Shown one piece after another: positions 1-56,822 of a DNA stretch of 64,000 nucleotides (position 1 is its first letter; every line of letters starts with the position of its first letter). The notes below the pieces were generated by a model. It searched no databases and was not told where the DNA came from. It worked only from the letters and a program-made list of their open reading frames with translations. The DNA is from an uncultured Gemmatimonadaceae bacterium (GTDB lineage Bacteria; Gemmatimonadota; Gemmatimonadetes; Gemmatimonadales; Gemmatimonadaceae): the NCBI GenBank assembly GCA_963740355.1, contig CAVUDW010000002.1, positions 1,888,001 through 1,952,000 on the forward strand. The letters run 5' to 3'. A program made the position numbers and the translations under genes.

Positions 1-877
1 AGATGCGATCGCGAATTGCGCGTGGCGAGTCAACGACATCAGTATCTGCCGAACGCAGCACGATGCTGTCGATCGCCAGGCGCAGATTCAGTGCAGCCGC
101 CGTATCCTGGCGTGCGACAGCAGCACCCCACGCCGGTAACAGTTCTCGCCAGAGATACGAGCGTGTCGCCTCTACCCATCGGCCCGATTCCGCCGCGGCT
201 TTGCTCGACATTCGCAGCGGATCACCTTGGAGCGCGAGCGTTGGCGAAGGCGAACGAGACAGGTCGTGGTACACCTTCCACGCCGCGTCAGCCCCGTCGC
301 GAAGACCAAGCCAGGTGAGTGCCATCGCACAGTTCCAGGCAGCTCCGGCGGAGCGTGGATCCTGGTGCAGCGCGACGCGCGCCGCATCCAGTGCGGCGAT
401 CAAGTCGAGCGCATCCCGGCCGCGAGCGAAACGCGTGAGTAGCGCACCCGACAGGTCGGACCAGCTTGCCGATGACGTTGGGTCCAAGGCAGTCGCGGCC
501 TGCAGGCCCAGGATCGCGCGACGAAGTGCACTGGTGTCGCTGGCTGCATACCAGAGGTCCGCCAACGCACGCGCACGCCTCACCTCCGCTTCCGGCAAGG
601 ACGGCGCCGCGACCGCGATACCCTCCATGATGCGACCGGCGTCCGCCGCGGCTGCCGCCGATGGCATGGGCATGGCGCCGCATGGATCGTCGACAGCGCC
701 GAGCGTCACTGTGTCGCACGATTCGGGCAGATGGCCGGCAATGGCTGCGGCGCCCTGCCATGGCAGTGTTGCCAGCGATGTGGACGTCGCTCCGCCGTCT
801 CCACATGACGTGCCGGCGATGGCACTGATTGCAAGCCAAACCTGCCTCACGATCACACGCCGCCGCACAGTTGTCAC
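1..877 (-). CDS. N-terminal part of a TPR-like helical protein, runs off the window (style resembles N-termini of TPR+CHAT proteins)
   Basis: Not in the ORF track because it has no stop in the window. Manual translation from GTG 877 (GTGA overlap with the permease stop): MTTVRRRVIVRQVWLAISAIAGTSC...ALDPTSSASWSDLSGALL...AAWNCAMALTWLGLRDGADAAWKVY; TPR-like helices. Confidence 0.7.
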   Translation of the reverse strand, partial: MTTVRRRVIVRQVWLAISAIAGTSCGDGGATSTSLATLPWQGAAAIAGHLPESCDTVTLGAVDDPCGAMPMPSAAAAADAGRIMEGIAVAAPSLPEAEVRRARALADLWYAASDTSALRRAILGLQAATALDPTSSASWSDLSGALLTRFARGRDALDLIAALDAARVALHQDPRSAGAAWNCAMALTWLGLRDGADAAWKVYHDLSRSPSPTLALQGDPLRMSSKAAAESGRWVEATRSYLWRELLPAWGAAVARQDTAAALNLRLAIDSIVLRSADTDVVDSPRAIRDRI

Positions 878-2202
878 GTCAGTCGCCGCGTGCGCTGCCA
901 GAGCGCGTAGGCCACCACACCCACCACCACCGTCGCCAGCCCGAGTCCAGCGAATCCCCAACCGCTGGTCGAGAAGATGTAGAACCATCCCACCAGCGCG
1001 ATGATGCTTGGCACCGGATAGAACCACATCCGGAACGGCAGGACGAAACCCTTCCGCTGTCGCAGGATGTGCAGCGCCGCAATCTGGCCAACGAACTGGA
1101 TCAGGATCCGCGACGTCAGAAGCGCTGAAATCACATCGCCGAGCGAAAAGAAGCTGCAGAGGATCGACAACACGCCAAGCACCACCACCGCCACGTGCGG
1201 GAAGTTGCCTGTGGGATGCAGCCTGGCGAAGACCGCGAAGAAGTCGCCTTCGGCGGCTGCGGCCCACGCGATCCGGCTGTAGCCGAGCAAGAGCGCGAAG
1301 ACTGACGCCACCGCCGTCCACATCACCAACACCGTCACGGCCGACGCCGCCTTCGGACCATAGAGTCGATTCATGAAATCCGAGACGATGAAGGTGGACT
1401 TCATCGCTTCGCGCCACGGGATGACAGCGATCAGGCTCAGGTTCGTCAGGGCATACATCGTTGCGACGGCGAGCACCGACCAGATGATGGCGCGCGGAAT
1501 GACCTTGGCCGGATTCTTGATCTCGCCCGCGACGTAGCAGACATCGAAATAGCCGCTGAAGTCATACATCGCGATCAGCATCGCTGAGCCAAGCCCGCTC
1601 ACGAAGCCGAGGTTGAAGGTGAACGCGTTCGGTGGAAAGTCGAAGACGATGGCGGCATCGAAATGCGTCAGCCCGCTCACGATCACGATCGTCACCGTGA
1701 GCAGCATGCCGATCCACAACACCACCGTCAGCTTCCCGATGCTGCTGATCTTGCGGTAGAGCAGGGCAATCACCACGAGTCCGATGGCGACGCTGATGAG
1801 GCGTGCGCCCCACACGCCCATACCAGGCCAGAAATAGCCGGCGTATTGTGCGAAGCCGATGTAGCCGGACGCGATCTCGAGCGGCGCGCTGAGGATGAAT
1901 TGCCAGATGAACAAGAACGGCAGCACGCCGCCGAGTTTTGTGCTGCGGAACGCCTCGCGCAGGTATACGTAGGTGCCGCCGGTGCCTGGCATGGCCGCCG
2001 AGAGTTCGCTCCAGACCAACCCGTCACTCAAGGCGAGGACCGCGCCGAGCACCCAGCCCAGCATGCACTGCGGGCCGCCCATCGTGGCGATGATCAACGG
2101 GATCGTGATGAACGGCCCGACGCCGACCATGTTGCTCATGTTGAGCGCAATCGCCTGCACCTGTCCGAGGCTCCGCTCCAGCCCACGCGGCGACGTACTC
2201 AC
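874..2202 (-). CDS. APC-family amino acid permease
   Basis: LERSLG...NMVGVGPFITIP, WSELSAAMPGTGGTYVYL, GEIKNPAKVIPRAI motifs; many TM segments; GTG 2202 is the likely start. Confidence 0.92.
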   Translation of the reverse strand: MSTSPRGLERSLGQVQAIALNMSNMVGVGPFITIPLIIATMGGPQCMLGWVLGAVLALSDGLVWSELSAAMPGTGGTYVYLREAFRSTKLGGVLPFLFIWQFILSAPLEIASGYIGFAQYAGYFWPGMGVWGARLISVAIGLVVIALLYRKISSIGKLTVVLWIGMLLTVTIVIVSGLTHFDAAIVFDFPPNAFTFNLGFVSGLGSAMLIAMYDFSGYFDVCYVAGEIKNPAKVIPRAIIWSVLAVATMYALTNLSLIAVIPWREAMKSTFIVSDFMNRLYGPKAASAVTVLVMWTAVASVFALLLGYSRIAWAAAAEGDFFAVFARLHPTGNFPHVAVVVLGVLSILCSFFSLGDVISALLTSRILIQFVGQIAALHILRQRKGFVLPFRMWFYPVPSIIALVGWFYIFSTSGWGFAGLGLATVVVGVVAYALWQRTRRLT

Positions 2203-2388
2203 TGCGGGCCCACCACGCTGCGTGCAACGCGACTGGTCGAGCCCTGCTGCTGGGTGACGTGGTGCACGGGTCGATTCCGGTGGAGGCTGCTGGATACACC
2301 TGAGTACGGTCCTGCGTACGGCCCTGAGCGGCAAAGGTACCGCTCGCGCGCGCCGGTGGGACGGGCCGCAGGGGGGCCGTGGAACCGA

Positions 2389-2414
2389 AGTACTTCAACG
2401 GTTGTAGAACTACT
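2389..2414. promoter_or_regulatory. Imperfect palindrome, candidate ArsR-family operator
   Basis: AGTACTTCAA-CGGTTG-TAGAACTACT, an AT-rich island ~60 nt upstream of the OYE-ArsR operon. Confidence 0.5.
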
Positions 2415-2416
2415 GA

Positions 2417-3583
<1,167 letters not shown>

Positions 3584-3904: not shown

Positions 3905-4461
3905 AACTCCGTCCCCCTTCCGCTCAGAGACTCCGTCCCCAAGTGCCAAAGACGTTCGCGGTGCGACGGACGCTGCTGCGGTCGCACTCCGTGAGCTCCG
4001 TGCGCTCCCCCTCATTGCAGTTCCTTCCCGCGCGATCGCGAGCAACCGCTGCACCGCGCACCGACGCTAACAGCAATTGGGGGGGAGGCCACGGAGCTCA
4101 CGGAGTGCTCCAGGTGCGACCTTGGCCTCTTCCCCAGCAACGGTGCTGAAGGGAACTGCTGGAGGAACTTCGTCCCCATGAACTGAAGAACTCCGTCCCC
4201 AAAGAACCAAAGACGTTCGCGGTGCGCCGGACGCTGCTGCGGTCGCACTCCGTGAGCTCCGTGCGCTCCCCCTCATTGCAGTTCCTTCCCGCGCGATCGC
4301 GAGCGGAGGCTGCACCGCGCACCGACGCTAACAGCAATTGGGGGGGAGGCCACGGAGCTCACGGAGTGCTCCGGTAGCAGTCTTGGCCTCTTCCCCAGCA
4401 ACGGTGCTGAAGGGAACTGCTGGAGGAACTTCGTCCCCTTGAGTTCTGGGAGTCCGTCCCC
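3905..4461. repeat. 261-bp-period tandem composite REP-like element (two cores with long inverted repeats, three junction doublets)
   Basis: AACTYCGTCCCC-type doublets at 3905/3929, 4166/4189 and 4427/4450. Each core has a perfect 19-bp IR: GCACTCCGTGAGCTCCGTG...CACGGAGCTCACGGAGTGC. Confidence 0.9.
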
Positions 4462-4495
4462 AGAGCTCCCCGCCGCCACAGGCGTCGGGTGCTGT

Positions 4496-4680
4496 CCTCC
4501 GCGCCACCGCGTCCCCCGCGCCTCCGCGTGAGGGAGTGTGGACCGTCAGGCGAAAGCGCAGCGTCGCCGCGCATGCGCACGCGCCGGACGATTGCCCGAT
4601 CCACCGCCCGTGAAGTCCGTCAGTGCGGAACGCCTTCGGAGTAAAGTCTCGCGCGGAGTCGCGAACGAGAAACGCGGAGG
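4496..4680. repeat. Degenerate inverted REP-like pair (CCTCCGCG...CGCGGAGG family)
   Basis: CCTCCGCGCCACCGCGTCCCCCGCGCCTCCGCGTGAG (~4496-4532) versus CTCGCGCGGAGTCGCG...ACGCGGAGG (~4648-4680). Confidence 0.5.
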
Positions 4681-4682
4681 AA

Positions 4683-5594
4683 CTACTGCAGGCTGATTCC
4701 GACCTCGAACGTCAGCGTCACGGTCACAGCCCCGCCGGCAGTGCCGGGCGCGGGTTGCAGGGTGGCGTTGATCGTGCCTTGCACGCGCGATGCCGTTTCG
4801 CTCGTGATCGTCACCGTGCCGGCGGAGAGGGCGTTGGTACCGCCCCAGGTGCCCGCGTTTGTGCCGGTGTTGATCAGGCGCAGCGTGTGCGTGGTGCCGG
4901 TGCCGAGTGTGTAGGTGCCGGGTGCCGTGTACTCGGTGAGGATCAGGCTCAGCGACTGCGCCGTGTTGGCCGCTGTGAAGGTGAGCGTACCTGACGTCGG
5001 GTTGGTGTTCGTCGTGACTGTGGCGGCGTTGAATGCAACCGTCGCAGCCGTGCCCGTGACCTTGCTCGCGGCATCAGGCGGGATCGTGATCGTCGTTGCG
5101 CCGGTGACCGGAATGCTGAACTGACCGTTCGTCACTGCACGGGTATTCGTCTGCGATTGACCCGGTAGTGGCGGTGCGTTGAAAGCGAATGATCCCGTGA
5201 TGCGCGATGTCGAGATCGTCGTGATCGTGACCGTCCCCGCAGCGCCGCTCAGTGGCGTGGCCCAGGTCGATGCGCCATTGGTGACCGTGGCACTTCCGCC
5301 TGCGACCGATGAGCCAACCCCGAGCGGATACGTGCCGGGAGTGGCGATGCCCGAAAATGTGACCGAGATCGCCGTGCCGCTCGACGTCGCAAGCCCAGCC
5401 ATCGTGAAGATCCCGCTCGACGTCGCGACTGCGGTGGGTGACAGGCTCTCCCATGGTGCCCCGTCGATGGTCGCGGTGAACTGCCGAATCACGACCGGCT
5501 CGGGCGACGTCGTCTCACTGCCACCGCCGCAGGCCGCAGCGAAGAACAGCAACGTCGCGGGCAGCACGCGGGGCAGGGCAGACCGTGGGTGCAT
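4683..5594 (-). CDS. Thr/Gly-rich beta-sheet lipoprotein with two internal domains, paralog 1
   Basis: Lipobox FAAAC; FTATIDGAPW start; repeated PGTYxLG...GTVTITxxxxxRxxG motif. Confidence 0.85.
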   Translation of the reverse strand: MHPRSALPRVLPATLLFFAAACGGGSETTSPEPVVIRQFTATIDGAPWESLSPTAVATSSGIFTMAGLATSSGTAISVTFSGIATPGTYPLGVGSSVAGGSATVTNGASTWATPLSGAAGTVTITTISTSRITGSFAFNAPPLPGQSQTNTRAVTNGQFSIPVTGATTITIPPDAASKVTGTAATVAFNAATVTTNTNPTSGTLTFTAANTAQSLSLILTEYTAPGTYTLGTGTTHTLRLINTGTNAGTWGGTNALSAGTVTITSETASRVQGTINATLQPAPGTAGGAVTVTLTFEVGISLQ

Positions 5595-5697
5595 CAATAC
5601 AGCCTCACAGCAACAGGTGGCTCGGTTCGGTGGCTGCTGGGAGCCTAGCGCGCCGTTCGCCCGAACGCGAGTTCCCTGTCTCCGATCTGCTGCCCCA

Positions 5698-6615
5698 TCA
5701 GGGTGTTGCGATCCCGATCTCGAATGTCACGTTGAGCGTCGTTGCGGCGGGGGCCAATGAACCGATCGGCTGGACCGTTGCCGTGAGCGTGCCCTTGATG
5801 CGTGTCGCGGTGGCGCTCGTGATGGTCAGCGTGCCGGTGGTATTGCCGTTGCTGCCACCCCACGAACCCGTCGGCGCGACCGTGTTGGTCACGCTCACCG
5901 TGCGCGATGCACCGGTGCCCAGCGTGTACGTGCCGACGCCGGTGTAGCCGGAAAGAATCACGTTCATCGTCTGCGCGCTGTTGCTTGCGCCGAAGGTGAA
6001 CGTGCCTGACGACGGCGCCGTCACCGTGACGACCGTCGCGGCGTTGAACGCCGTCCCGGCCACCGTGCCAGTCACCTTGCTGCCAGCGTAGTCGGGCACC
6101 ACCAGGGTTGCCGGCCCGCTGGTGATCGGCACATCGAACGTGCCCGCCGTGACGACACGGGTGTTCGTCACCGTCTGACCGATCAGCGGCGGTGCATTGA
6201 ACGTGAAGGTGCCCGCGACTCGCGTCGGCGAGACCGCCGTCACAGTTACCGTGCCCGCTGCGCCGCTCAACCCCGTTGACCAGATCGAACTGCCGCTGGT
6301 CACCGTCGCGGTGCCACCAGTCACCGAGGGGCCGACGCCGAGGGGATACGTCCCCGGTGCTGCGATCGAGTAGAGCGTCATCGTGATCGCTGTGCCTGAC
6401 CCCGTCTGCACGCCACCCAGGGCGAAGTTTCCGCCCGCACTGGCGCCGCCGCTCGTCACAGCCGACGACCAACTGGCGCCATCGATGCGGGCGGTGAAGG
6501 TGCCAGAGTTTCCACCGTTTCCAACCGGCCCACCACCGCCGCCGCCACACGCGGCCAGCCCGGCCAGCACGACCGCCGCAGCCAGGCGGACTGTGACTGG
6601 ATATTGAATCGCCAT
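5698..6615 (-). CDS. Thr/Gly-rich beta-sheet lipoprotein, paralog 2
   Basis: Lipobox LAAC; collinear with 4683-5594 over its whole length; GGAG RBS before ATG 6615. Confidence 0.85.
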   Translation of the reverse strand: MAIQYPVTVRLAAAVVLAGLAACGGGGGGPVGNGGNSGTFTARIDGASWSSAVTSGGASAGGNFALGGVQTGSGTAITMTLYSIAAPGTYPLGVGPSVTGGTATVTSGSSIWSTGLSGAAGTVTVTAVSPTRVAGTFTFNAPPLIGQTVTNTRVVTAGTFDVPITSGPATLVVPDYAGSKVTGTVAGTAFNAATVVTVTAPSSGTFTFGASNSAQTMNVILSGYTGVGTYTLGTGASRTVSVTNTVAPTGSWGGSNGNTTGTLTITSATATRIKGTLTATVQPIGSLAPAATTLNVTFEIGIATP

Positions 6616-49063: not shown

Positions 49064-50608
49064 CTATGCGGCGGCGGCCGCGGCGGACGCCTGACGATGT
49101 CGGGAGAATGCGGCCACCAGGTGATCACGCATGGCGCGCAGCAGCTCCTTGATCGTGTCCGAACACTCGACGGGATCCGGCCCGTTATCGAAGTACAGGC
49201 ACCCGATCAACTTGTCTTCCAGGACCAGCGGCAGCAACGCGACACAGCGCGGGCGCAGCTCGCGAAGCATGCGATCGCGGCGAAAGCTCTTGCCATCGCC
49301 GACCTCGGTGTCGATGAACACATCCTCACGAAGTTGCAGCGCCTCGCCGAGCGGGCCGAATGCCCGTTGAGGGCGAACCGCGAATGTCCGCAGCAGTTCC
49401 TCGTGGCCGACGCCCGCGCCCATGCGTCCCTTCACGACACTGAAGTCCTCCGTGCTCAGCGCCAGCAAGGAGCGACGAAAGCCAGCGCCACGCGCGGCAT
49501 CGAGCGTCGCCGCTGTCGCCGCACCGACCGTGAAGCGGTCGCCCTGCTGCCGCTGCTCGCTGAGCGAGCGGACGACCCCGCGCACCTCGGCCTCGCTGGC
49601 GCTGTCCGACTCGTTCGGCTGTGTGAGGTTGGAGACGGCGGATTCCCCCGACGTGGCCAATTCCAGCTCCAGCCGCTTCGAGGCATACCGCTCTTCCCGT
49701 GCGGCCAGCCAGCCGTCCACCGAGACGTGCATCGTGTCCAGCGTCGGCGTCGCTTCCATTCGGGCGGTCGCGACGGACTCGTGAATCACCTTCGCTTCCA
49801 CACCGAGCGCCTTGGTGTATGACTCGATCAATGGCGCGCTGTCGGGAAGCGCTCCGTCGGATTGAAGGGCACCGTACGTCAGGCGCGTGAGGTCGGCGCT
49901 GCACTGGGTGATGTGGTGCAGGCGATCGCGGGCTGTATCATCACTCGGGTCGATGCGCCGCAGCGTCTGCACCAGGTCCGCGGGCATGCCCCAGCGTTGC
50001 GCCAGCACGAGCCCGACCTGATCGAAGGTGAAGCCAAAGTGCTTCTCCTCGCTGCCGACGCCCTGCGCCCCGCCGGTGACCACGATATCGGTCCACTCTC
50101 GGTACTGTGTCGCCCGATAGCAGGCGACCAGCACCTCGCCGAGGTTGCGAAAGAGGCCGCAGAGATACGCCATCTCGGGGCGCCCGTAGCCCGCACCGAT
50201 GGCCAGTGAAAGGCTCTGGTTGGCCGTGAGCACGGAGAGCACCAGCAGGTCCTGCACGGCGGGAGCGTTCTTCTCGATCTGTTCGAACATGCTGGCAGAC
50301 GCCGAGAGGTGCTGCACTCGATCGTAGCCAAGCAACATGATCGCCTGCTTGACGCTCGTGATCGGCGTTCCGCCACCGTTGAGCGCCGAACTGGCGATGC
50401 GCAGCACCTTGGTCGTGAGGGCGACATCCCTCACGATGGCCTGCTCGAGCAGCGCGACTCGCGCTTCGAGGTCGGACGCGACCGTGGCGATGGCGCGCAC
50501 GTTTTGCACGAACGCGGGGAGATCGGTGGCTGCGCCGACGGACTGGACGAAGGCCAACGCCTCGCGCGACAGTGTGCCCTCGGCCGGCGACGATACGCCC
50601 GTGCTCAT
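49064..50608 (-). CDS. HDOD domain protein with C-terminal GAF-like domain
   Basis: DLPAF, IVRDVALTTKVLRIA, SVKQAIMLLG, GLFRNLG, WGMP; LPLVLEDKLIGCLYFD. Confidence 0.88.
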   Translation of the reverse strand: MSTGVSSPAEGTLSREALAFVQSVGAATDLPAFVQNVRAIATVASDLEARVALLEQAIVRDVALTTKVLRIASSALNGGGTPITSVKQAIMLLGYDRVQHLSASASMFEQIEKNAPAVQDLLVLSVLTANQSLSLAIGAGYGRPEMAYLCGLFRNLGEVLVACYRATQYREWTDIVVTGGAQGVGSEEKHFGFTFDQVGLVLAQRWGMPADLVQTLRRIDPSDDTARDRLHHITQCSADLTRLTYGALQSDGALPDSAPLIESYTKALGVEAKVIHESVATARMEATPTLDTMHVSVDGWLAAREERYASKRLELELATSGESAVSNLTQPNESDSASEAEVRGVVRSLSEQRQQGDRFTVGAATAATLDAARGAGFRRSLLALSTEDFSVVKGRMGAGVGHEELLRTFAVRPQRAFGPLGEALQLREDVFIDTEVGDGKSFRRDRMLRELRPRCVALLPLVLEDKLIGCLYFDNGPDPVECSDTIKELLRAMRDHLVAAFSRHRQASAAAAAA

Positions 50609-50916
50609 GCGGTGGGCGCCGATGTGCCGTCGTTCGGCGTGGCGACCTCGGTCAGCAGTTGGCGGAGCGGGTTCACCCCTTGCTGGCGCAGGAATGCTGC
50701 GGCCGGTGACTCCGCAACGAACAAGGCAAAGACCGATGCCTGCGAGGCGTCATGCCACTGTTCGCCGCCACCTCGCCCCGGAAAGCGGACGAAGGTGATT
50801 CCGTCGTCCACGCGCAGCTCTGAGACGAGGCCCGAGGCGCGATCCGTGATCCGAAGCACCTTGTCGCGCGGTTCGTAGGTCGAGGTCAGCGCAAAGGTCG
50901 GAATATCGGCAGGCAT
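50605..50916 (-). CDS. Hypothetical protein (103 aa) coupled to the HDOD gene
   Basis: ATGA overlap with the HDOD start; coding-like codon bias. Confidence 0.65.
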   Translation of the reverse strand: MPADIPTFALTSTYEPRDKVLRITDRASGLVSELRVDDGITFVRFPGRGGGEQWHDASQASVFALFVAESPAAAFLRQQGVNPLRQLLTEVATPNDGTSAPTA

Positions 50917-51214: not shown

Positions 51215-53749
51215 ATGCGCTACCACGACTTCGATCTGTCCATTGCGCTCGCGGCCGACGGTTCGGTGGCGCTGCGATCATGGTGCGACGCACATGGTGA
51301 GTACAAGGATGTCGCCGTCCTCGACCGCGGCACACTCGAAAGCGACTCGAAGGTTCTGTCGGCGGATGGCGTCGCGCGCGATACCCTGCGACAGATCGGT
51401 GGTCGGCTCTACGCGTACACGTTTGCGTCCACCGGCCGCAATATCGAGTGGCACTTCGGCCAGTGTTGGGGTGCGGCGCGAAGCACCAGTGATGGTGTAC
51501 GGCTCCGGCTGCGTGTGGAAGAACCGACGCTGGCCGTGATTCCGTGGGAGTACCTCTACTCGGAGCGCCTTCACTCCTTCCTCGGCGTCTCCGAACGCAC
51601 GCCGATCGTGCGATACCTCGAACTGCCGCAAGCAATTCCGACGCTCGAGGCGACGCTGCCCGTTCGAGTGTTGTTGGTGATGCCCGATGAACCAGAGCTG
51701 GATACGGCAAAGGAAAAGGCGGCGATCCTCGCTGCCGTCGCGCCGTTGAAGGAGTCGGTGCAAGTCACGCTCCTGGAAGGGAAGGTGACACGGCGGCAGA
51801 TCGCAGACACGCTCGCGATGGCCGAATACCATGTGATGCACTTCATCGGGCACGGCGACTTCGCCAGTGATCGTGCCGTGCTGCTGATGTACGCCGATGA
51901 CGGGAGCGAGGCGGAGGTCGACGATGAGCGCGTGGCTGGACTGTTCCGAAATCATCCGTCGATGAAGCTGGTGATCCTCAACTCCTGCCGTGGCGGTGAG
52001 TTGTCGGCATCGAAGCCGTTCGTTGGCATGGCCGCGGCGCTGGTTCGTGCCGGTATCCCAGCGGTGATCGCGATGCAGTACGAGATCGCGGATGACGAAG
52101 CAGTCCTGTTCGCGAGCACGCTCTTCCGCCATCTCTTCCTTGGTCGAGACAAGGGCCGCATCGAGATCGCGGTCTCAAATGCGCGCAACGCGCTGGCCGA
52201 GGAGTTTCCCGATACTCGTGCGGTTGGATTGCCGGTGCTGTTCACGCATGCTCGCGAAGGCGTGCTGTTCAATCTCGAGAGCGGCAGTCCATTGCTCGAC
52301 CTGTCGGCGCAGTCGGCGGATCGCATGAAGGCCGTGATCCGCGCGCACGAACAGAACCTCGACGCGATCCGGAAGGCAGCGCCGGATGATGAGGATGCAG
52401 GCACGCCGGCGCCGGCAGGTGCTTCGCGCCCAGAGCTGTCGAGTGATCCGAACAGCCCCACGCGTTCCGCTCGCACGATGCGTTCGCGACGAGGCGGGCC
52501 TCGGTCGGAGGTCGAACGTCTCGAGATTCTCGCGCTGCAGCGTGCGCGGCAGCGACTGCGGTTCCGCAACTGGACGATCGTGATCGCGGTGGCCATCGCA
52601 CTGGTCGTCGGCCTCGCGGGCGCGTATGCCGGCGTTCAACAGCGATTCCCGTACGTGCGGGCGGAGAGCTATGTGATCGCATGGAGTGACCTCTTCCATC
52701 ATCACGATGCCGAAGCGGGGGTCGTGCTGGTCGCGATCGACAGTGCGACAGTGGCTGCGATTGGCAGCGTGCCCGATGCCTCGTGGCGCGGACATCATGC
52801 CCGAGTGCTGCAGCGGATCCTCGACGCGGGCGCGCCGGTGGTCGCATTCAACCTTGGGTTCGACAGCGTACCGGCCACGCTGCGCGATGTCACGGATTCG
52901 TTGGCGAGGCAATTCGCACGCGCCAAGGCCATGGGGCGTGCGGTGTTGGCGGCCCCGCGATCGTTCCGCGATGGCGCGCCGATGGCGGAACCGGCACTGC
53001 TCCCGGTCGCTCAGTTCGGCACGAATTGCGTCGCGCTGGCGTCGGGAACGGCGCCGGTGATGACGCTGGCGGCTGGTGGAAAGAACGGCCGCGTGCTGTC
53101 GTTGCCACTCTCAGCCGTGAGCGTCTTCCGCGCGGTGGAACGCGTGAAGGGCGGGGGCGATCTGCAGCGCTTGCTGACGGCGGTAACGATGGAGACGCAG
53201 TATGCTGGCAGCGTGGACGACGAGTGCGGTTTTGCCCCGGGCGATACCCTGTGGCGCATGGCGATCGATTATGCCCCGCAACATGAACTGGCCGACTCTC
53301 TCCATCGGCTGTCGTACCTCCGCGTGCTGCGCGACTCTGCACTCCCTGACCTTAGCCATGCACTGGTCCTGATCGGCTACGAGAATCCGGAGCGCACCTT
53401 CCATGTCTTGCGCGGATGGTCGCGCGAGCAGCGCTTCGGTGTGCAGGTCGAGGTCGATGCGATGAACACCGTACTGCGTGAAGTGCGGATCGCACCGCTG
53501 CGAAAGCGGTTTCAGCTGATCGTGATCCTGTTGATGGCCGCGCTGGGCGCATTTTCGGCATGGCTGGTGGTCCCTGCGGGTGAGCGCGTCTCGGCTGCGG
53601 CGGTGGTGGGCAGTGTGGTGCTGTACTTCGTGGCTGGCGCGGTGCTCTACGCTCGGAGCCACTGGTTGTTGAACACCGTTTTCGATCTCTCGGCTTTGAT
53701 CATCTCCTTCATCGCGGTGCGGTACACCCGCAGGACATGGTTCCCATGA
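51215..53749 (+). CDS. CHAT (caspase-like) protease - TM - CHASE2 sensor - 3TM
   Basis: IPWEYL, HFIGHG, ILNSC, AVIAMQY (CHAT); VVLVAIDSAT...WRGHHARVLQRILDAGA.VVAFN, VLIGY, FGVQV and 3 terminal TMs (CHASE2). Confidence 0.88.
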   Translation: MRYHDFDLSIALAADGSVALRSWCDAHGEYKDVAVLDRGTLESDSKVLSADGVARDTLRQIGGRLYAYTFASTGRNIEWHFGQCWGAARSTSDGVRLRLRVEEPTLAVIPWEYLYSERLHSFLGVSERTPIVRYLELPQAIPTLEATLPVRVLLVMPDEPELDTAKEKAAILAAVAPLKESVQVTLLEGKVTRRQIADTLAMAEYHVMHFIGHGDFASDRAVLLMYADDGSEAEVDDERVAGLFRNHPSMKLVILNSCRGGELSASKPFVGMAAALVRAGIPAVIAMQYEIADDEAVLFASTLFRHLFLGRDKGRIEIAVSNARNALAEEFPDTRAVGLPVLFTHAREGVLFNLESGSPLLDLSAQSADRMKAVIRAHEQNLDAIRKAAPDDEDAGTPAPAGASRPELSSDPNSPTRSARTMRSRRGGPRSEVERLEILALQRARQRLRFRNWTIVIAVAIALVVGLAGAYAGVQQRFPYVRAESYVIAWSDLFHHHDAEAGVVLVAIDSATVAAIGSVPDASWRGHHARVLQRILDAGAPVVAFNLGFDSVPATLRDVTDSLARQFARAKAMGRAVLAAPRSFRDGAPMAEPALLPVAQFGTNCVALASGTAPVMTLAAGGKNGRVLSLPLSAVSVFRAVERVKGGGDLQRLLTAVTMETQYAGSVDDECGFAPGDTLWRMAIDYAPQHELADSLHRLSYLRVLRDSALPDLSHALVLIGYENPERTFHVLRGWSREQRFGVQVEVDAMNTVLREVRIAPLRKRFQLIVILLMAALGAFSAWLVVPAGERVSAAAVVGSVVLYFVAGAVLYARSHWLLNTVFDLSALIISFIAVRYTRRTWFP

Positions 53750-54813
53750 ATGGTCGCGAAGGTACGACGGCTCTCGGTCGGCGGCTGGTGCTGCTGGTGC
53801 TGTTCGTCGGCGCGGTGGTGGCCGGTTGTACACCGGTGCCGTCGGCGTTCGCGCGGCTCGACAGCGCCGTGACTCGGGACAAGTTCACCAACAACCCGTC
53901 GAAGTCGGATGTGCGCGTGGTGCGCGACGATGTGGTGTTGTCGCCGACTGTGGCGATGGCGCTGAAGAAGGGTGATTCGATCAGTACCTCATCGTCGGCG
54001 CAGATCGTGATGACCTTCGCCGCCGGCTACGAGGTCACGCTCGATACCGGCACTGCCATCTACATCGAGAATCCCTCGATCTTCCTCAAGTGGGGCAGGG
54101 CCTTCATCCGCCGACTCACAGGTACGCCGGATACCCTCGACACCCATACGCGGCACGCGACGCTGCACGATGTCGGCACATCGTACGTCGTCTCGGTGAC
54201 CCCGGAGGTGACGACCGTACGCGTCGAGACGGGTGTCGTGGCGGCGCGAATGCGCGGCGATTCGAGTCAGTGGACCAGGTATGGTGCGCTGGAAGGTGGC
54301 CAGATCACCATTGGACAACGACCGACGCGGACGACCCGGATTTCTGCCGATCAGATGGAGCAGGAACTCCGCTGGGTCCGCCGGATCGACCAGATCTCGA
54401 ATATCGTGGTCCCGCAGCTGGATTCGATGACCGAACGTGACGCGCGCAGCGCGCTCGATCGGGTTGGGCTGCGCGTGCTCTTCGTCACGCATCGATCCAC
54501 GGGACGGTACGCCCCCGGTCGTGTCATCGAGACCACGCCTGGCGCAGGGCAGAAGACGAAGCCTGGTACCTACGTGAATCTGGTGCTCGAGAAAGAGGCC
54601 GCGCGCGACACACCGGCGCGGCAGTGCAGGGTGCCGACGATCACCGACATGCCGGAGAAGACCGCTCTCGCGCTTCTGGCGCGCGCGAACCTGCGAGGCG
54701 AAGCGATCAGTCGCGTGGGTGAGCGCGACATCGTTACCACGCAGCAGGAGAAGTCGGGGACGATGATCGCGTGCGGATCAGTCGTTCACTACACTTGGGG
54801 GCAGTTGCGCTAG
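53746..54813 (+). CDS. Lipoprotein FecR-like + two PASTA domains
   Basis: VVAGC lipobox; LKKGDSISTS..GTSYVV..TTVRVETGVV; VVPQLDSMTERDARSAL..GL..GRVIETTPGAG; VPTITDMPEKTA; ATGA overlap with the CHAT gene. Confidence 0.85.
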   Translation: MNGREGTTALGRRLVLLVLFVGAVVAGCTPVPSAFARLDSAVTRDKFTNNPSKSDVRVVRDDVVLSPTVAMALKKGDSISTSSSAQIVMTFAAGYEVTLDTGTAIYIENPSIFLKWGRAFIRRLTGTPDTLDTHTRHATLHDVGTSYVVSVTPEVTTVRVETGVVAARMRGDSSQWTRYGALEGGQITIGQRPTRTTRISADQMEQELRWVRRIDQISNIVVPQLDSMTERDARSALDRVGLRVLFVTHRSTGRYAPGRVIETTPGAGQKTKPGTYVNLVLEKEAARDTPARQCRVPTITDMPEKTALALLARANLRGEAISRVGERDIVTTQQEKSGTMIACGSVVHYTWGQLR

Positions 54814-55871: not shown

Positions 55872-56822
55872 ATGACGTCGCGCCGCCGGAAAATCCTGAT
55901 CGGTGTGCCAGTGGTCCTCGTTGCGGCGGCGTTCGCGCTCTGGACGCCTGATGCCGAACGTGAAGTGCTCGAGGCGAAATATCTCGCACATCGCGAAGAC
56001 CTTCGGTCGATCGCGGGTACCACCCTGCACGTGCGGGATACGGGCCCACGCAACGCGCCGGCGCTGATCTTCCTGCACGGCTTCGGTGCAAGCCTGCACA
56101 CGTGGGAACCGTGGGCACGCGCCCTCGACAGCACGTATCGCGTCATTCGGTTCGACTTGCCCGGTAGTGGCCTCAGCGCCCCGGATGCGACCAACGACTA
56201 CACCGACACACGCAGCATGCAGCTCCTGCTGGCGTTGATGGACTCGCTGCATGTGTCGCGCGCGTCGCTGATCGGGAACTCGATGGGCGGACGCATCGCA
56301 TGGCGCTTTGCTGCGGCGCATCCCGAGCGTGTCGAGCGGTTGGTGCTTTCGGCTCCCGACGGCTTTGCGAGCCCGGGATTCGAGTACGGCAAGCCGGCGG
56401 AAATCCCGGCCACGCTGCCGCTGATGCGATTCGTGCTTCCCAAGTCGTTGTTGCGGCTCAGCCTCGAACCTGCATATGCCGATTCGCGCTCGATGACCGA
56501 TAGCCTCGCAACGCGATACTACGACTTGATGCTCGCCCCCGGAGCGCGGTCCGCGATGCTTGCGCGCATGGAGCAGACCGTCCTCACCGATCCTGTGCCG
56601 GTCTTGCGCCGGATCCTTGCCCCGACGCTGCTGCTCTGGGGCGAGAAGGATGCGATGATCCCGGTCGCGAATGCACAGGATTACCTGAAGGCCATACCGA
56701 ACGTGCGCCTCGTGACCCTGCCAAACGCCGGACACCTTCCATTCGAGGAAATCCCGGCGGCAGCGCTGAAGCCGGTGCGCGCATTTCTTGAGCCTACTTG
56801 CCGTCCATCTTCCAGAACGTGA
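55872..56822 (+). CDS. Alpha/beta hydrolase (Abhydrolase_1) with N-terminal anchor
   Basis: FLHGFG, DLPGSG, GNSMGG, GEKD, AGHLP. Confidence 0.92.
   Translation: MTSRRRKILIGVPVVLVAAAFALWTPDAEREVLEAKYLAHREDLRSIAGTTLHVRDTGPRNAPALIFLHGFGASLHTWEPWARALDSTYRVIRFDLPGSGLSAPDATNDYTDTRSMQLLLALMDSLHVSRASLIGNSMGGRIAWRFAAAHPERVERLVLSAPDGFASPGFEYGKPAEIPATLPLMRFVLPKSLLRLSLEPAYADSRSMTDSLATRYYDLMLAPGARSAMLARMEQTVLTDPVPVLRRILAPTLLLWGEKDAMIPVANAQDYLKAIPNVRLVTLPNAGHLPFEEIPAAALKPVRAFLEPTCRPSSRT

Follow-up and report, generated by a model that had tools for sequence, protein, structure and literature searches.

A transmembrane CHAT-CHASE2 protein paired with a FecR-PASTA lipoprotein in Gemmatimonadaceae: a candidate outside-in proteolytic switch

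What does a membrane receptor respond to, and what does it cut, when its output is a caspase-like protease? The question is raised by two adjacent genes in a stretch of 64,000 nucleotides (the window) from contig CAVUDW010000002.1 of assembly GCA_963740355.1, positions 1,888,001 to 1,952,000; the host genome belongs to the Gemmatimonadaceae and is 94.5% complete. Gene 1 encodes a receptor-protease composed of a CHAT domain, a transmembrane (TM) helix, a CHASE2 domain and three further TM helices, and the product of gene 2 is a lipoprotein that combines a FecR domain with two PASTA domains (Table 1). We consider it an even chance that the two genes constitute an outside-in proteolytic switch, in which the FecR-PASTA/CHASE2 sensor controls the cytoplasmic caspase-like protease.

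The CHAT domain of gene 1 (PF12770, residues 105-329) was detected in Pfam with an E-value of 1.5e-21 and 77.5 bits against a cut-off of 24. CHASE2 (PF05226, residues 493-778) was found with an E-value of 1.5e-10 and 41.5 bits (cut-off 26.3); the CHASE2 scores of its relatives are 70-83 bits. A sequence-profile search with the CHAT part of the family profile matched the CHAT protein of PDB entry 8tl0_A (E 1e-12), and no solved-structure relative of the CHASE2 part was found by sequence. The first-pass annotation had described an intact His/Cys dyad in the motifs HFIGHG (His209-Gly214) and LNSC (Leu255-Cys258), and the family alignment bears this out: His209, His213 and Cys258 are invariant in 36/36 sequences, and about 50 other positions are invariant together with the His213/Cys258 dyad. 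Mean identity is highest over the CHAT residues 101-355 (0.65), drops to 0.42 in CHASE2 and is lowest in the linker (0.35). Such a gradient fits an effector module that stays constant while the sensor attached to it changes faster. As for the start of the gene, MRYHDFDL, which begins at the ATG at 51215, or a near variant of it opens the aligned homologues too, and the homologue N-termini give no support to a longer GTG open reading frame (ORF) from 51119.

The topology of gene 1 was derived from hydropathy, charge and cysteine conservation. TM1 is preceded on the cytoplasmic side by the sequence RARQRLRFRN, and the C-terminus is a basic tail of 8 residues past TM4, ending RYTRRTWFP. Because of the arginine run before TM1, the three TM helices at residues 765-836 and the short basic tail, the CHAT domain is placed in the cytoplasm and ahead of TM1. 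Both members of the CHASE2 pair Cys605/Cys671 are kept in 35/36 aligned sequences, which fits an oxidising compartment. Gene 1 is predicted to encode a four-pass membrane protein with CHAT on the cytoplasmic and CHASE2 on the extracytoplasmic side. Hydropathy peaks at residues 268-287 and 499-520 were rejected as TM helices, as they fall within the CHAT and CHASE2 domains. No output domain follows the last TM helix, and the sole enzymatic domain precedes TM1; on the order of one TM, CHASE2, three TMs and no C-terminal output, Pfam and hydropathy agree with the earlier description. The linker between CHAT and TM1 is composed of a conserved helix (SA.R.KAVIR.HE.NL), a stretch rich in proline and charged residues, and a basic juxtamembrane helix.

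Gene 2 appears to be translationally coupled to gene 1, with its ATG at 53746 overlapping the TGA at 53747-53749 as ATGA. An alternative in-frame ATG at 53737 would create an overlap of 13 nucleotides, but the sequence AGGA lies 10 nucleotides before 53746. Two stretches of the protein match PASTA (PF03793) with an E-value of 3.6e-15 and 56.1 bits (cut-off 23.2), and the gene 2 family profile matches the Stk1/PknB PASTA structures 3py9 (E 1.1e-17) and 2kui. The FecR domain (PF04773) scores 23.6 bits in hmmscan (E 7.3e-5), just below the 24-bit cut-off. The assignment is supported by the six-frame genome search, where it reaches 26.2 bits and passes the cut-off, by the scores of the scanned partners of related loci (28-41 bits at L001-L013; the weakest, at L079, 20.8 bits), and by matches of the family profile to the FecR-like PDB chains 6ovk_R (E 3.2e-5) and 4m0n_A. 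The combination of an ATGA overlap, a lipobox, a FecR-like domain and two PASTA domains, as first annotated, is confirmed, with PASTA solid and FecR marginal by its own score but backed by the other three results. The lipobox Cys28 (53827-53829) is kept in 35/38 aligned gene 2 family sequences and the pair Cys294/Cys343 of the second PASTA domain in 32/38. Together with the cysteine pair of CHASE2, these residues support a predicted periplasmic location. The features of a FecR-type anti-sigma factor are missing, as the N-terminus encoded by gene 2 is the signal peptide of a lipoprotein; NF007296, the model for full-length FecR, gives 13.3 bits against a cut-off of 385, and Pfam finds no sigma-factor families among the scanned neighbours of the pair.

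The conservation of the pair was assessed in 45 loci with a full-length CHAT-TM-CHASE2 gene, comprising 13 from genomes (one genome per species), 31 from metagenomes and the window. The loci form 26 clusters at 70% identity; the metagenome loci include near-duplicates, so cluster counts are given beside locus counts. In 42/42 assessable loci and 23/23 assessable clusters, including all 13 genome loci and 28/28 assessable metagenome loci, the next gene downstream encodes a FecR domain, and it usually overlaps the stop codon of the protease gene. Twenty-five of the 28 metagenome partners were recognised by Pfam and three (L138, L150 and L163), first missed by ORF picking in high-GC DNA, by the gene 2 family profile; L144, L145 and L156 end too early downstream and are outside the FecR count. 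The FecR-paired loci span the Gemmatimonadota, Rhodothermota, Acidobacteriota, Verrucomicrobiota, Pseudomonadota and Thermodesulfobacteriota. The proposal that the two genes are a functional unit is upheld by this presence in at least six phyla, and the neighbourhood survey suggested as its check found the pair in every assessable cluster. No other gene of the window recurs in related loci as a third conserved member.

PASTA domains are present in the FecR partner of 17/23 assessable clusters, in 1-7 copies, and absent from 6/23. The invariable element of the partner appears to be FecR, with PASTA common but not required. The acidobacterial locus L010 carries an additional gene encoding FecR and TPR domains, and the FecR partner of L132 and L133 (6442-7563) ends in a PEP-CTERM motif instead of PASTA, which suggests a different surface tethering. 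The gene 2 family comprises 31 clusters of about 350 residues, 23 of them with FecR and PASTA, 7 with PASTA only and 1 with FecR only in precomputed Pfam annotation; for many of them the listed longest-contig size equals that of CHAT-CHASE2 clusters.

Named homologues of gene 1 belong to the Gemmatimonadaceae and Gemmatimonadota. A word-indexed search returned 59 other clusters, 29 of which carry both CHAT and CHASE2. In a profile search that was exhaustive over 1.84 billion representatives (50% identity), about 94 of the best 150, counted by eye, align collinearly, in one piece, with 690 or more of the 824 profile positions. The family appears to be sizeable and unnamed. In the gene 1 tree a Verrucomicrobia copy nests beside Competibacter copies, and the family crosses phyla. 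The combination of CHASE2 with a caspase-like domain is an architecture that databases already contain and is less unusual than the first-pass annotation implied: 22/30 of the nearest large ESM Atlas clusters, mostly cyanobacterial, carry CHASE2 plus CHAT, and a metacaspase-CHASE2 fusion was tabulated in 2010, as the accessible part of that paper records (PMC2853523).

A recurrent neighbour of the protease is Pepco, a family named, with Trypco, by Kaur et al. (PMC7159879, accessible text). Using Pfam and a Pepco hidden Markov model (HMM), a Pepco gene was found upstream of the protease, generally as its immediate neighbour, in 27/41 assessable loci and 13/23 assessable clusters; by source, it is present in 4/13 genome loci and 23/27 assessable metagenome loci. 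Pepco and a FecR-PASTA partner are combined in seven clusters, and Pepco occurs in separate lineages both with and without PASTA partners. According to the accessible text of a 2025 preprint (PMC12642450), Pepco forms a beta-barrel, assembled beforehand, which is converted into a lethal pore by site-specific cleavage by the neighbouring protease. The Pepco-linked proteases described there, cysteine proteases among them, have sensors of various kinds, peptidoglycan-binding domains among these; the accessible main text does not contain the words CHASE2, FecR or CHAT. Because 27 of the 41 assessable relatives carry Pepco by the protease, the family as a whole points to death-type regulated proteolysis. 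The proteolytic switch claimed at first is in this sense supported at the family level, but not as the output of this genome, in which Pepco was not found. Wall sensing by the lipoprotein, oligomerisation of CHASE2 and triggering by envelope damage or infection, which the same annotation proposed, are hypothetical steps.

Loci that seemed to lack Pepco were searched again with a local Pepco HMM, which recovered 7/7 control loci and added only L128. There Pepco lies 1.7 kb upstream of the protease, behind an inserted ORF of 469 amino acids without a Pfam match (L128:1848-4001), which may be a mobile insertion. At L079 a metallophosphoesterase takes the place of Pepco, and metallophosphoesterase-like enzymes are listed among protease-associated proteins in the accessible text of PMC12642450. 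The loci L008 (Rhodothermales), L010 and L150 have no recognised effector, and hhalign comparison of the upstream ORFs at L008 and L010 gave no resemblance to Pepco. The CHAT-linked Pepco proteins of L009, L011-L013 and L049 end 2-5 residues past the Pfam model. Because they are without the longer C-terminal tail that is cleaved in the Streptomyces Pepco studied in PMC12642450 (accessible text), their cut site may differ.

The window belongs to a Gemmatimonadota-type clade with L001-L003 and L005-L007, which has a support of 100/100 in the gene 1 tree. L119, L120 and L122, which are 46-59% identical to the window protein, are counted as the same type; they are not in the tree, and L119 and L120 share a 70% cluster with L003 and L005. 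At least seven distinct Pepco-less clusters of this type keep both genes. The tree is unrooted and its deep branches are unresolved, so a loss of Pepco cannot be told from a gain. Matches to the gene 1 protein at E <= 1e-60 were found in 0/300 other sampled Gemmatimonadota genomes, one of the same genus included, and the pair would seem to be accessory and sporadic in distribution.

These observations can be combined in a model of the switch. The FecR lipoprotein would serve as a co-sensor docked on CHASE2, tied by its PASTA repeats to peptidoglycan or its precursors, and a change or disturbance of the envelope would alter the FecR-CHASE2 contact. The signal would run through TM1 and the basic juxtamembrane helix to CHAT, probably by bringing the protease domains together as with other caspase-type enzymes, and the activated protease would cut a target in the cytoplasm or the inner membrane. 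Among the relatives with a linked Pepco gene this target would most likely be the Pepco pre-pore, resulting in membrane permeabilisation. Because Pepco is absent in the Gemmatimonadota clade, the protease is there expected to act on an unlinked target, or on its own 90-residue linker to free itself. In view of the accessory nature and sporadic distribution of the gene, the window pair most likely keeps a stress- or conflict-triggered role, which is the weakest step of the model.

Several results weigh against this model. No match to Pepco (Pfam and own alignment), Trypco1 or CATASP was obtained anywhere in the host genome, and Pepco was not found in the window or in the examined stretches of the other Gemmatimonadota-type loci; a reading in terms of a death effector rests on the relatives for this reason. 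In the window, PADLOC defence models match the pair's own parts, namely SAVED_CHAT over the CHAT part of gene 1 and the PASTA-like tail of PD-T4-6 kinase models for gene 2, each the sole match of its protein. The neighbours give just two matches, both weak and at domain level, at distances of 15 kb upstream and 8 kb downstream, so that no defence island can be recognised around the pair. The FecR score of the window protein itself sits at the Pfam cut-off. The variation of the PASTA copies from 0 to 7 fits a role in anchoring or spacing as well as it fits ligand sensing. Not every PASTA domain binds peptidoglycan. Finally, CHASE2 is found in 10/120 other sampled Gemmatimonadota genomes, and at eight such loci (six cyclases, one HD-type enzyme and one TIR fusion) Pfam detected a FecR neighbour in 0/8 and hhalign two weak resemblances; in eight cyanobacterial CHASE2 loci, DUF928 was adjacent in four and FecR in none. 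From these two sets FecR is not a universal partner of CHASE2. The statement in the first-pass annotation that CHASE2 often neighbours FecR genes has precedents in Burkholderia, where a gene encoding LysM and FecR lies beside a CHASE2 kinase (PMC5192318, accessible text), and in Campylobacterota, where a FecR protein and a TPR protein accompany a CHASE2 cyclase (PMC9239204, accessible text), but the two sets just described do not follow it.

A different role for the same parts would be non-lethal homeostasis of the envelope or cell wall, with the sensor directing regulated proteolysis at a regulator in the cytoplasm, for example an inhibitor of division or a protein of anti-sigma type, and the Pepco-less clade repurposed to this end. 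It agrees with the Gemmatimonadota-type loci, none of which has a linked effector gene although they are monophyletic and keep the dyad, and with the gene surroundings, since peptidoglycan-related genes lie just upstream in the two relatives L006 (PG_binding_1) and L014 (Amidase_2-SH3) and the window neighbours are signalling genes (HDOD, hybrid kinase) rather than defence genes. There is also a precedent in HetF, a membrane-anchored CHAT-TM-TPR protease that degrades PatU3 by cleavage at the divisome of Anabaena (PMC8406250 and PMC9457339, accessible text). However, the HetF model NF045509 scores 51 bits on gene 1 against a cut-off of 1200, over the CHAT part only, most of the family is Pepco-linked, and absence from 300 sampled genomes would be unusual for a housekeeping circuit. 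We regard homeostasis as possible but doubtful. Much the same grade is given to the strongest form of the switch, that the family is a bacterial counterpart of the extrinsic death pathway: a surface or periplasmic receptor complex, made of the FecR-PASTA lipoprotein and CHASE2, that reports wall damage or invasion through the wall would directly switch on a caspase-like protease across the membrane, licensing Pepco in most members, and the window clade would be a derived form with a new, unlinked substrate. This is a tentative proposal, to be held with less than even confidence; if it is true, it would provide a first handle on what the CHASE2 domain senses.

The sensing step may be divided differently, with CHASE2 itself binding the signal, for instance a small molecule, and the FecR-PASTA protein acting as a peptidoglycan-anchored scaffold, localiser or negative regulator. 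The lack of PASTA in some clusters and its range of copy numbers point this way, as do the other modules of FecR partners (LysM in Burkholderia, TPR in L010, PEP-CTERM in L132 and L133) and the many CHASE2 receptors without a detectable FecR neighbour. On the other hand, the presence of the FecR partner in every assessable locus and its translational coupling to gene 1 argue for a stoichiometric, essential role, and the FecR region, with a mean identity of 0.50, is no less conserved than CHASE2. This arrangement, which we consider rather unlikely, would change the first step of the mechanism only and leave the overall switch as it is. A pair in decay, left over without function from a Pepco system that lost its toxin, or a CHAT domain that serves only as a non-catalytic scaffold, would agree with the absence of Pepco. 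This reading is very improbable given the conservation: both reading frames are intact, the dyad and its accompanying positions are invariant throughout the alignment, the Pepco-less clusters keep both genes, and CHAT is the most conserved part of the protein.

A comparison of the outside-in switch with known systems reveals shared parts in a different arrangement. In the Pepco-protease modules of PMC12642450 (accessible text), as in the gene 1 relatives, a sensor-bearing protease stands beside a small latent effector. The tested example is the cytoplasmic Avs4 trypsin-like protease, which senses a phage portal protein, whereas here a CHAT protease is wired to an extracytoplasmic two-protein sensor and Pepco was not found in the genome. 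Canonical CHASE2 receptors, with cyclase, kinase or GGDEF/EAL outputs, have the TM-CHASE2-3TM unit and an adjacent secreted FecR partner in common with the pair. The partner often has a peptidoglycan-binding module (LysM in Burkholderia, PASTA here), and the FecR and TPR proteins of the Campylobacterota operon have a likeness in the FecR-TPR gene of L010. By contrast, the output of gene 1 is a protease before TM1 and not a cyclase or kinase after TM4, and it would seem to involve neither a second messenger nor a phosphorelay.

HetF of Anabaena resembles gene 1 in its N-terminal CHAT domain and membrane anchor and links proteolysis to envelope and division events, but it has a single TM helix, TPR instead of CHASE2 and no FecR partner. 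DdvA of Myxococcus (PMC11506125) is likewise transmembrane, couples CHAT to inner-membrane signalling in a defence context, and has a long flexible linker that is the proposed site of self-cleavage; gene 1 also has a long linker. The order of DdvA (anti-sigma-TM-periplasmic TPR-CHAT) is reversed, with CHAT in the periplasm and a cytoplasmic part that binds an ECF sigma factor (PMC11506125). The PASTA Ser/Thr kinases PknB, Stk1 and PrkC couple extracytoplasmic PASTA domains to a cytoplasmic enzyme, as proposed here; in the window, which is from a diderm host, PASTA is on a separate lipoprotein, and its sole route to the enzyme would be by way of FecR and CHASE2. The cyanobacterial CHAT-TM-CHASE2 protein of L115 (781 amino acids) has the same order of CHAT, TM, CHASE2 and TMs and an adjacent secreted partner. 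It differs in that this partner is DUF928 and not FecR-PASTA, and its sequence is very remote (the branch length in the tree is 7.8).

The N-terminal 355 residues of gene 1 were also compared as a CHAT module. Its clade contains fusions to FGE-sulfatase, TPR, WD40, PD40, Kelch, TIR, SIR2, FHA, PAS and EAD2 domains, and its gene neighbours include Trypco1, CATASP/CATRA, VMAP-C and nSTAND1, which is the domain company of prokaryotic conflict systems as presented in the accessible text of Kaur et al. 2020 (PMC7159879). L027, a locus of another Gemmatimonadaceae genome, encodes a direct fusion of CHAT, a TM helix (residues 381-399), two PASTA domains and a VHL-beta-like domain. It has the enzyme-TM-PASTA layout of the PASTA kinases, with CHAT replacing the kinase, and appears to link PASTA independently to the CHAT clade of gene 1. 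Such fusions are rare: among 106 matches to the PASTA-VHL part of L027, one further cluster (P0093) has CHAT. The CHAT genes of this locus are in tandem (L027:95-3958), the first being the PASTA fusion and the second encoding a CHAT protein of 516 amino acids.

Much of what the locus contains is known already in pairs: CHASE2 with FecR, caspase-superfamily domains with CHASE2, Pepco with proteases, and PASTA with cytoplasmic enzymes. We found no published description of the whole assembly of Pepco, CHAT-TM-CHASE2 and FecR-PASTA, nor of its Pepco-less Gemmatimonadota form, and the literature search returned no publication that combines CHASE2 with a CHAT domain; in one apparent co-mention of CHASE2, CHAT and cyanobacteria, "Chat" was the name of an author. 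The family joins CHASE2 sensing to protease-effector defence, with an extracytoplasmic sensor, often carrying PASTA, connected through the membrane to a caspase-like protease. In the accessible descriptions, the protease-effector defence modules that have been characterised sense cytoplasmic phage proteins. In most members of the family the protease stands beside a proven type of protease-activated pore-forming toxin. As a compact cassette of two or three genes, the locus makes testable what CHASE2 and FecR sense, the activation of a caspase-type protease from outside the cell, and the role of the protease when the toxin is missing, as in the host genome. The accessible text of a 2016 paper states that the factors recognised by CHASE2 are unknown (PMC5192318), and in the literature from 2015 on we found no structure or ligand study of the domain.

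CHASE2 is associated with effector-like domains in other settings as well, and its use as an extracellular module on a conflict-system protein is noted in the accessible text of Kaur et al. 2021 (PMC8195603). In a Gemmatimonadota genome of the same family, L097 (G103:C1, about 2819310-2821208, minus strand) encodes a CHASE2-TIR protein of 632 amino acids with TIR after the last TM helix, apparently another CHASE2 domain wired to an immune-type effector domain. The second CHASE2 protein of the host genome, at L089 (G000:C3:1194000-1205000; 4438-6249, minus strand), is a cyclase of the usual kind, beside which no FecR gene was detected; its surroundings include a caspase gene of the Peptidase_C14-Sel1 type (705-3029, plus strand) as well as an S8 subtilase and a GAF protein. 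At L095 (G116:C37:1-8300), genes for an MBL-fold hydrolase and a Peptidase_C14-DUF4384 caspase are located directly upstream of CHASE2-cyclase-TPR and GAF-HD genes, and the accessible text of PMC12642450 has MBL with a protease among its protease-effector pairs.

The cyanobacterial genomes G304 and G305 have 10-29 CHASE2 matches each. At their loci L114-L117, DUF928 adjoins each CHASE2 receptor, the outputs of which are cyclase, CHAT or GGDEF-EAL domains, and TPR-CHAT, DUF1822, TPS-domain and EAD4-NACHT proteins are encoded nearby. In Sinorhizobium, the gene SMc02177 may adjoin cyaD1. Among the targets of Clr, a regulator that depends on cAMP, is SMc02177, which has a FecR domain; the study that reports this also worked with the CHASE2 cyclase CyaD1 (PMC5498481, accessible text).

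Table 1. Coordinates of the gene pair, its parts and its annotated neighbours in the window.
Feature	Coordinates	Strand	Basis
Gene 1 (P0001), receptor-protease CHAT-TM-CHASE2-3TM, 844 aa	51215..53749	+	translation, Pfam, homologue N-termini
Predicted cytoplasmic protease module, residues 1-355 (N-terminal extension and CHAT)	51215..52279	+	Pfam, conservation
Putative catalytic His213 codon	51851-51853	+	alignment, 36/36
Putative catalytic Cys258 codon	51986-51988	+	alignment, 36/36
Variable linker, residues 356-445	52280..52549	+	least conserved region of gene 1
TM1, residues 448-475	52556..52639	+	hydropathy peak 2.43; basic residues N-terminally
Predicted periplasmic CHASE2 domain, residues 476-764	52640..53506	+	Pfam 493-778
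TM2-TM4, residues 765-836	53507..53722	+	three hydropathy peaks
Gene 2 (P0002), FecR-PASTA-PASTA lipoprotein, 355 aa	53746..54813	+	translation, Pfam
Signal peptide with lipobox VVAGC	53746..53829	+	hydropathy peak residues 6-36
FecR-domain region, residues 29-215	53830..54390	+	Pfam residues 77-165; family profile
Two PASTA domains, residues 216-283 and 284-355	54391..54810	+	Pfam, PDB profile matches
MASE1-PAS-HisKA-HATPase-receiver-esterase (BD-FAE/Abhydrolase_3) fusion, single ORF, 1096 aa	45634-48924	-	Pfam
HDOD-domain protein, 514 aa	49064-50608	-	Pfam
103-aa ORF without family match, preceding the HDOD gene	50605-50916	-	Pfam

Besides the MASE1-PAS-kinase-receiver-esterase fusion and the HDOD protein, the neighbours of the pair in the window include a small lipoprotein and an alpha/beta-hydrolase that is anchored. 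The kinase-esterase, an unusual fusion, is encoded on the strand opposite to the pair and about 2.3 kb upstream of it. The HDOD gene and the short ORF that precedes it overlap by 4 nucleotides, and both are divergent from gene 1. The hydrolase, at about 55878-56822, was considered as a caspase-linked effector and rejected: it is an ordinary Abhydrolase_1 protein with an N-terminal hydrophobic anchor, and it is not conserved beside the pair, with only an unrelated match in L048. A promoter scan at the pair found no promoter-like site and terminator-like sites at chance level, and alignment of the DNA upstream of the pair revealed conservation among close relatives only.

In two other lineages the gene order extends past the pair. 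At L009 (11418-14236, Verrucomicrobia) and L011 (11166-14422, Competibacter) the gene after FecR encodes a hybrid kinase with PAS, HisKA, HATPase and receiver domains, and these kinase neighbours suggest a further signalling layer. Past the kinase in both loci lies a convergent ORF, the N-terminus of which looks like a response regulator.

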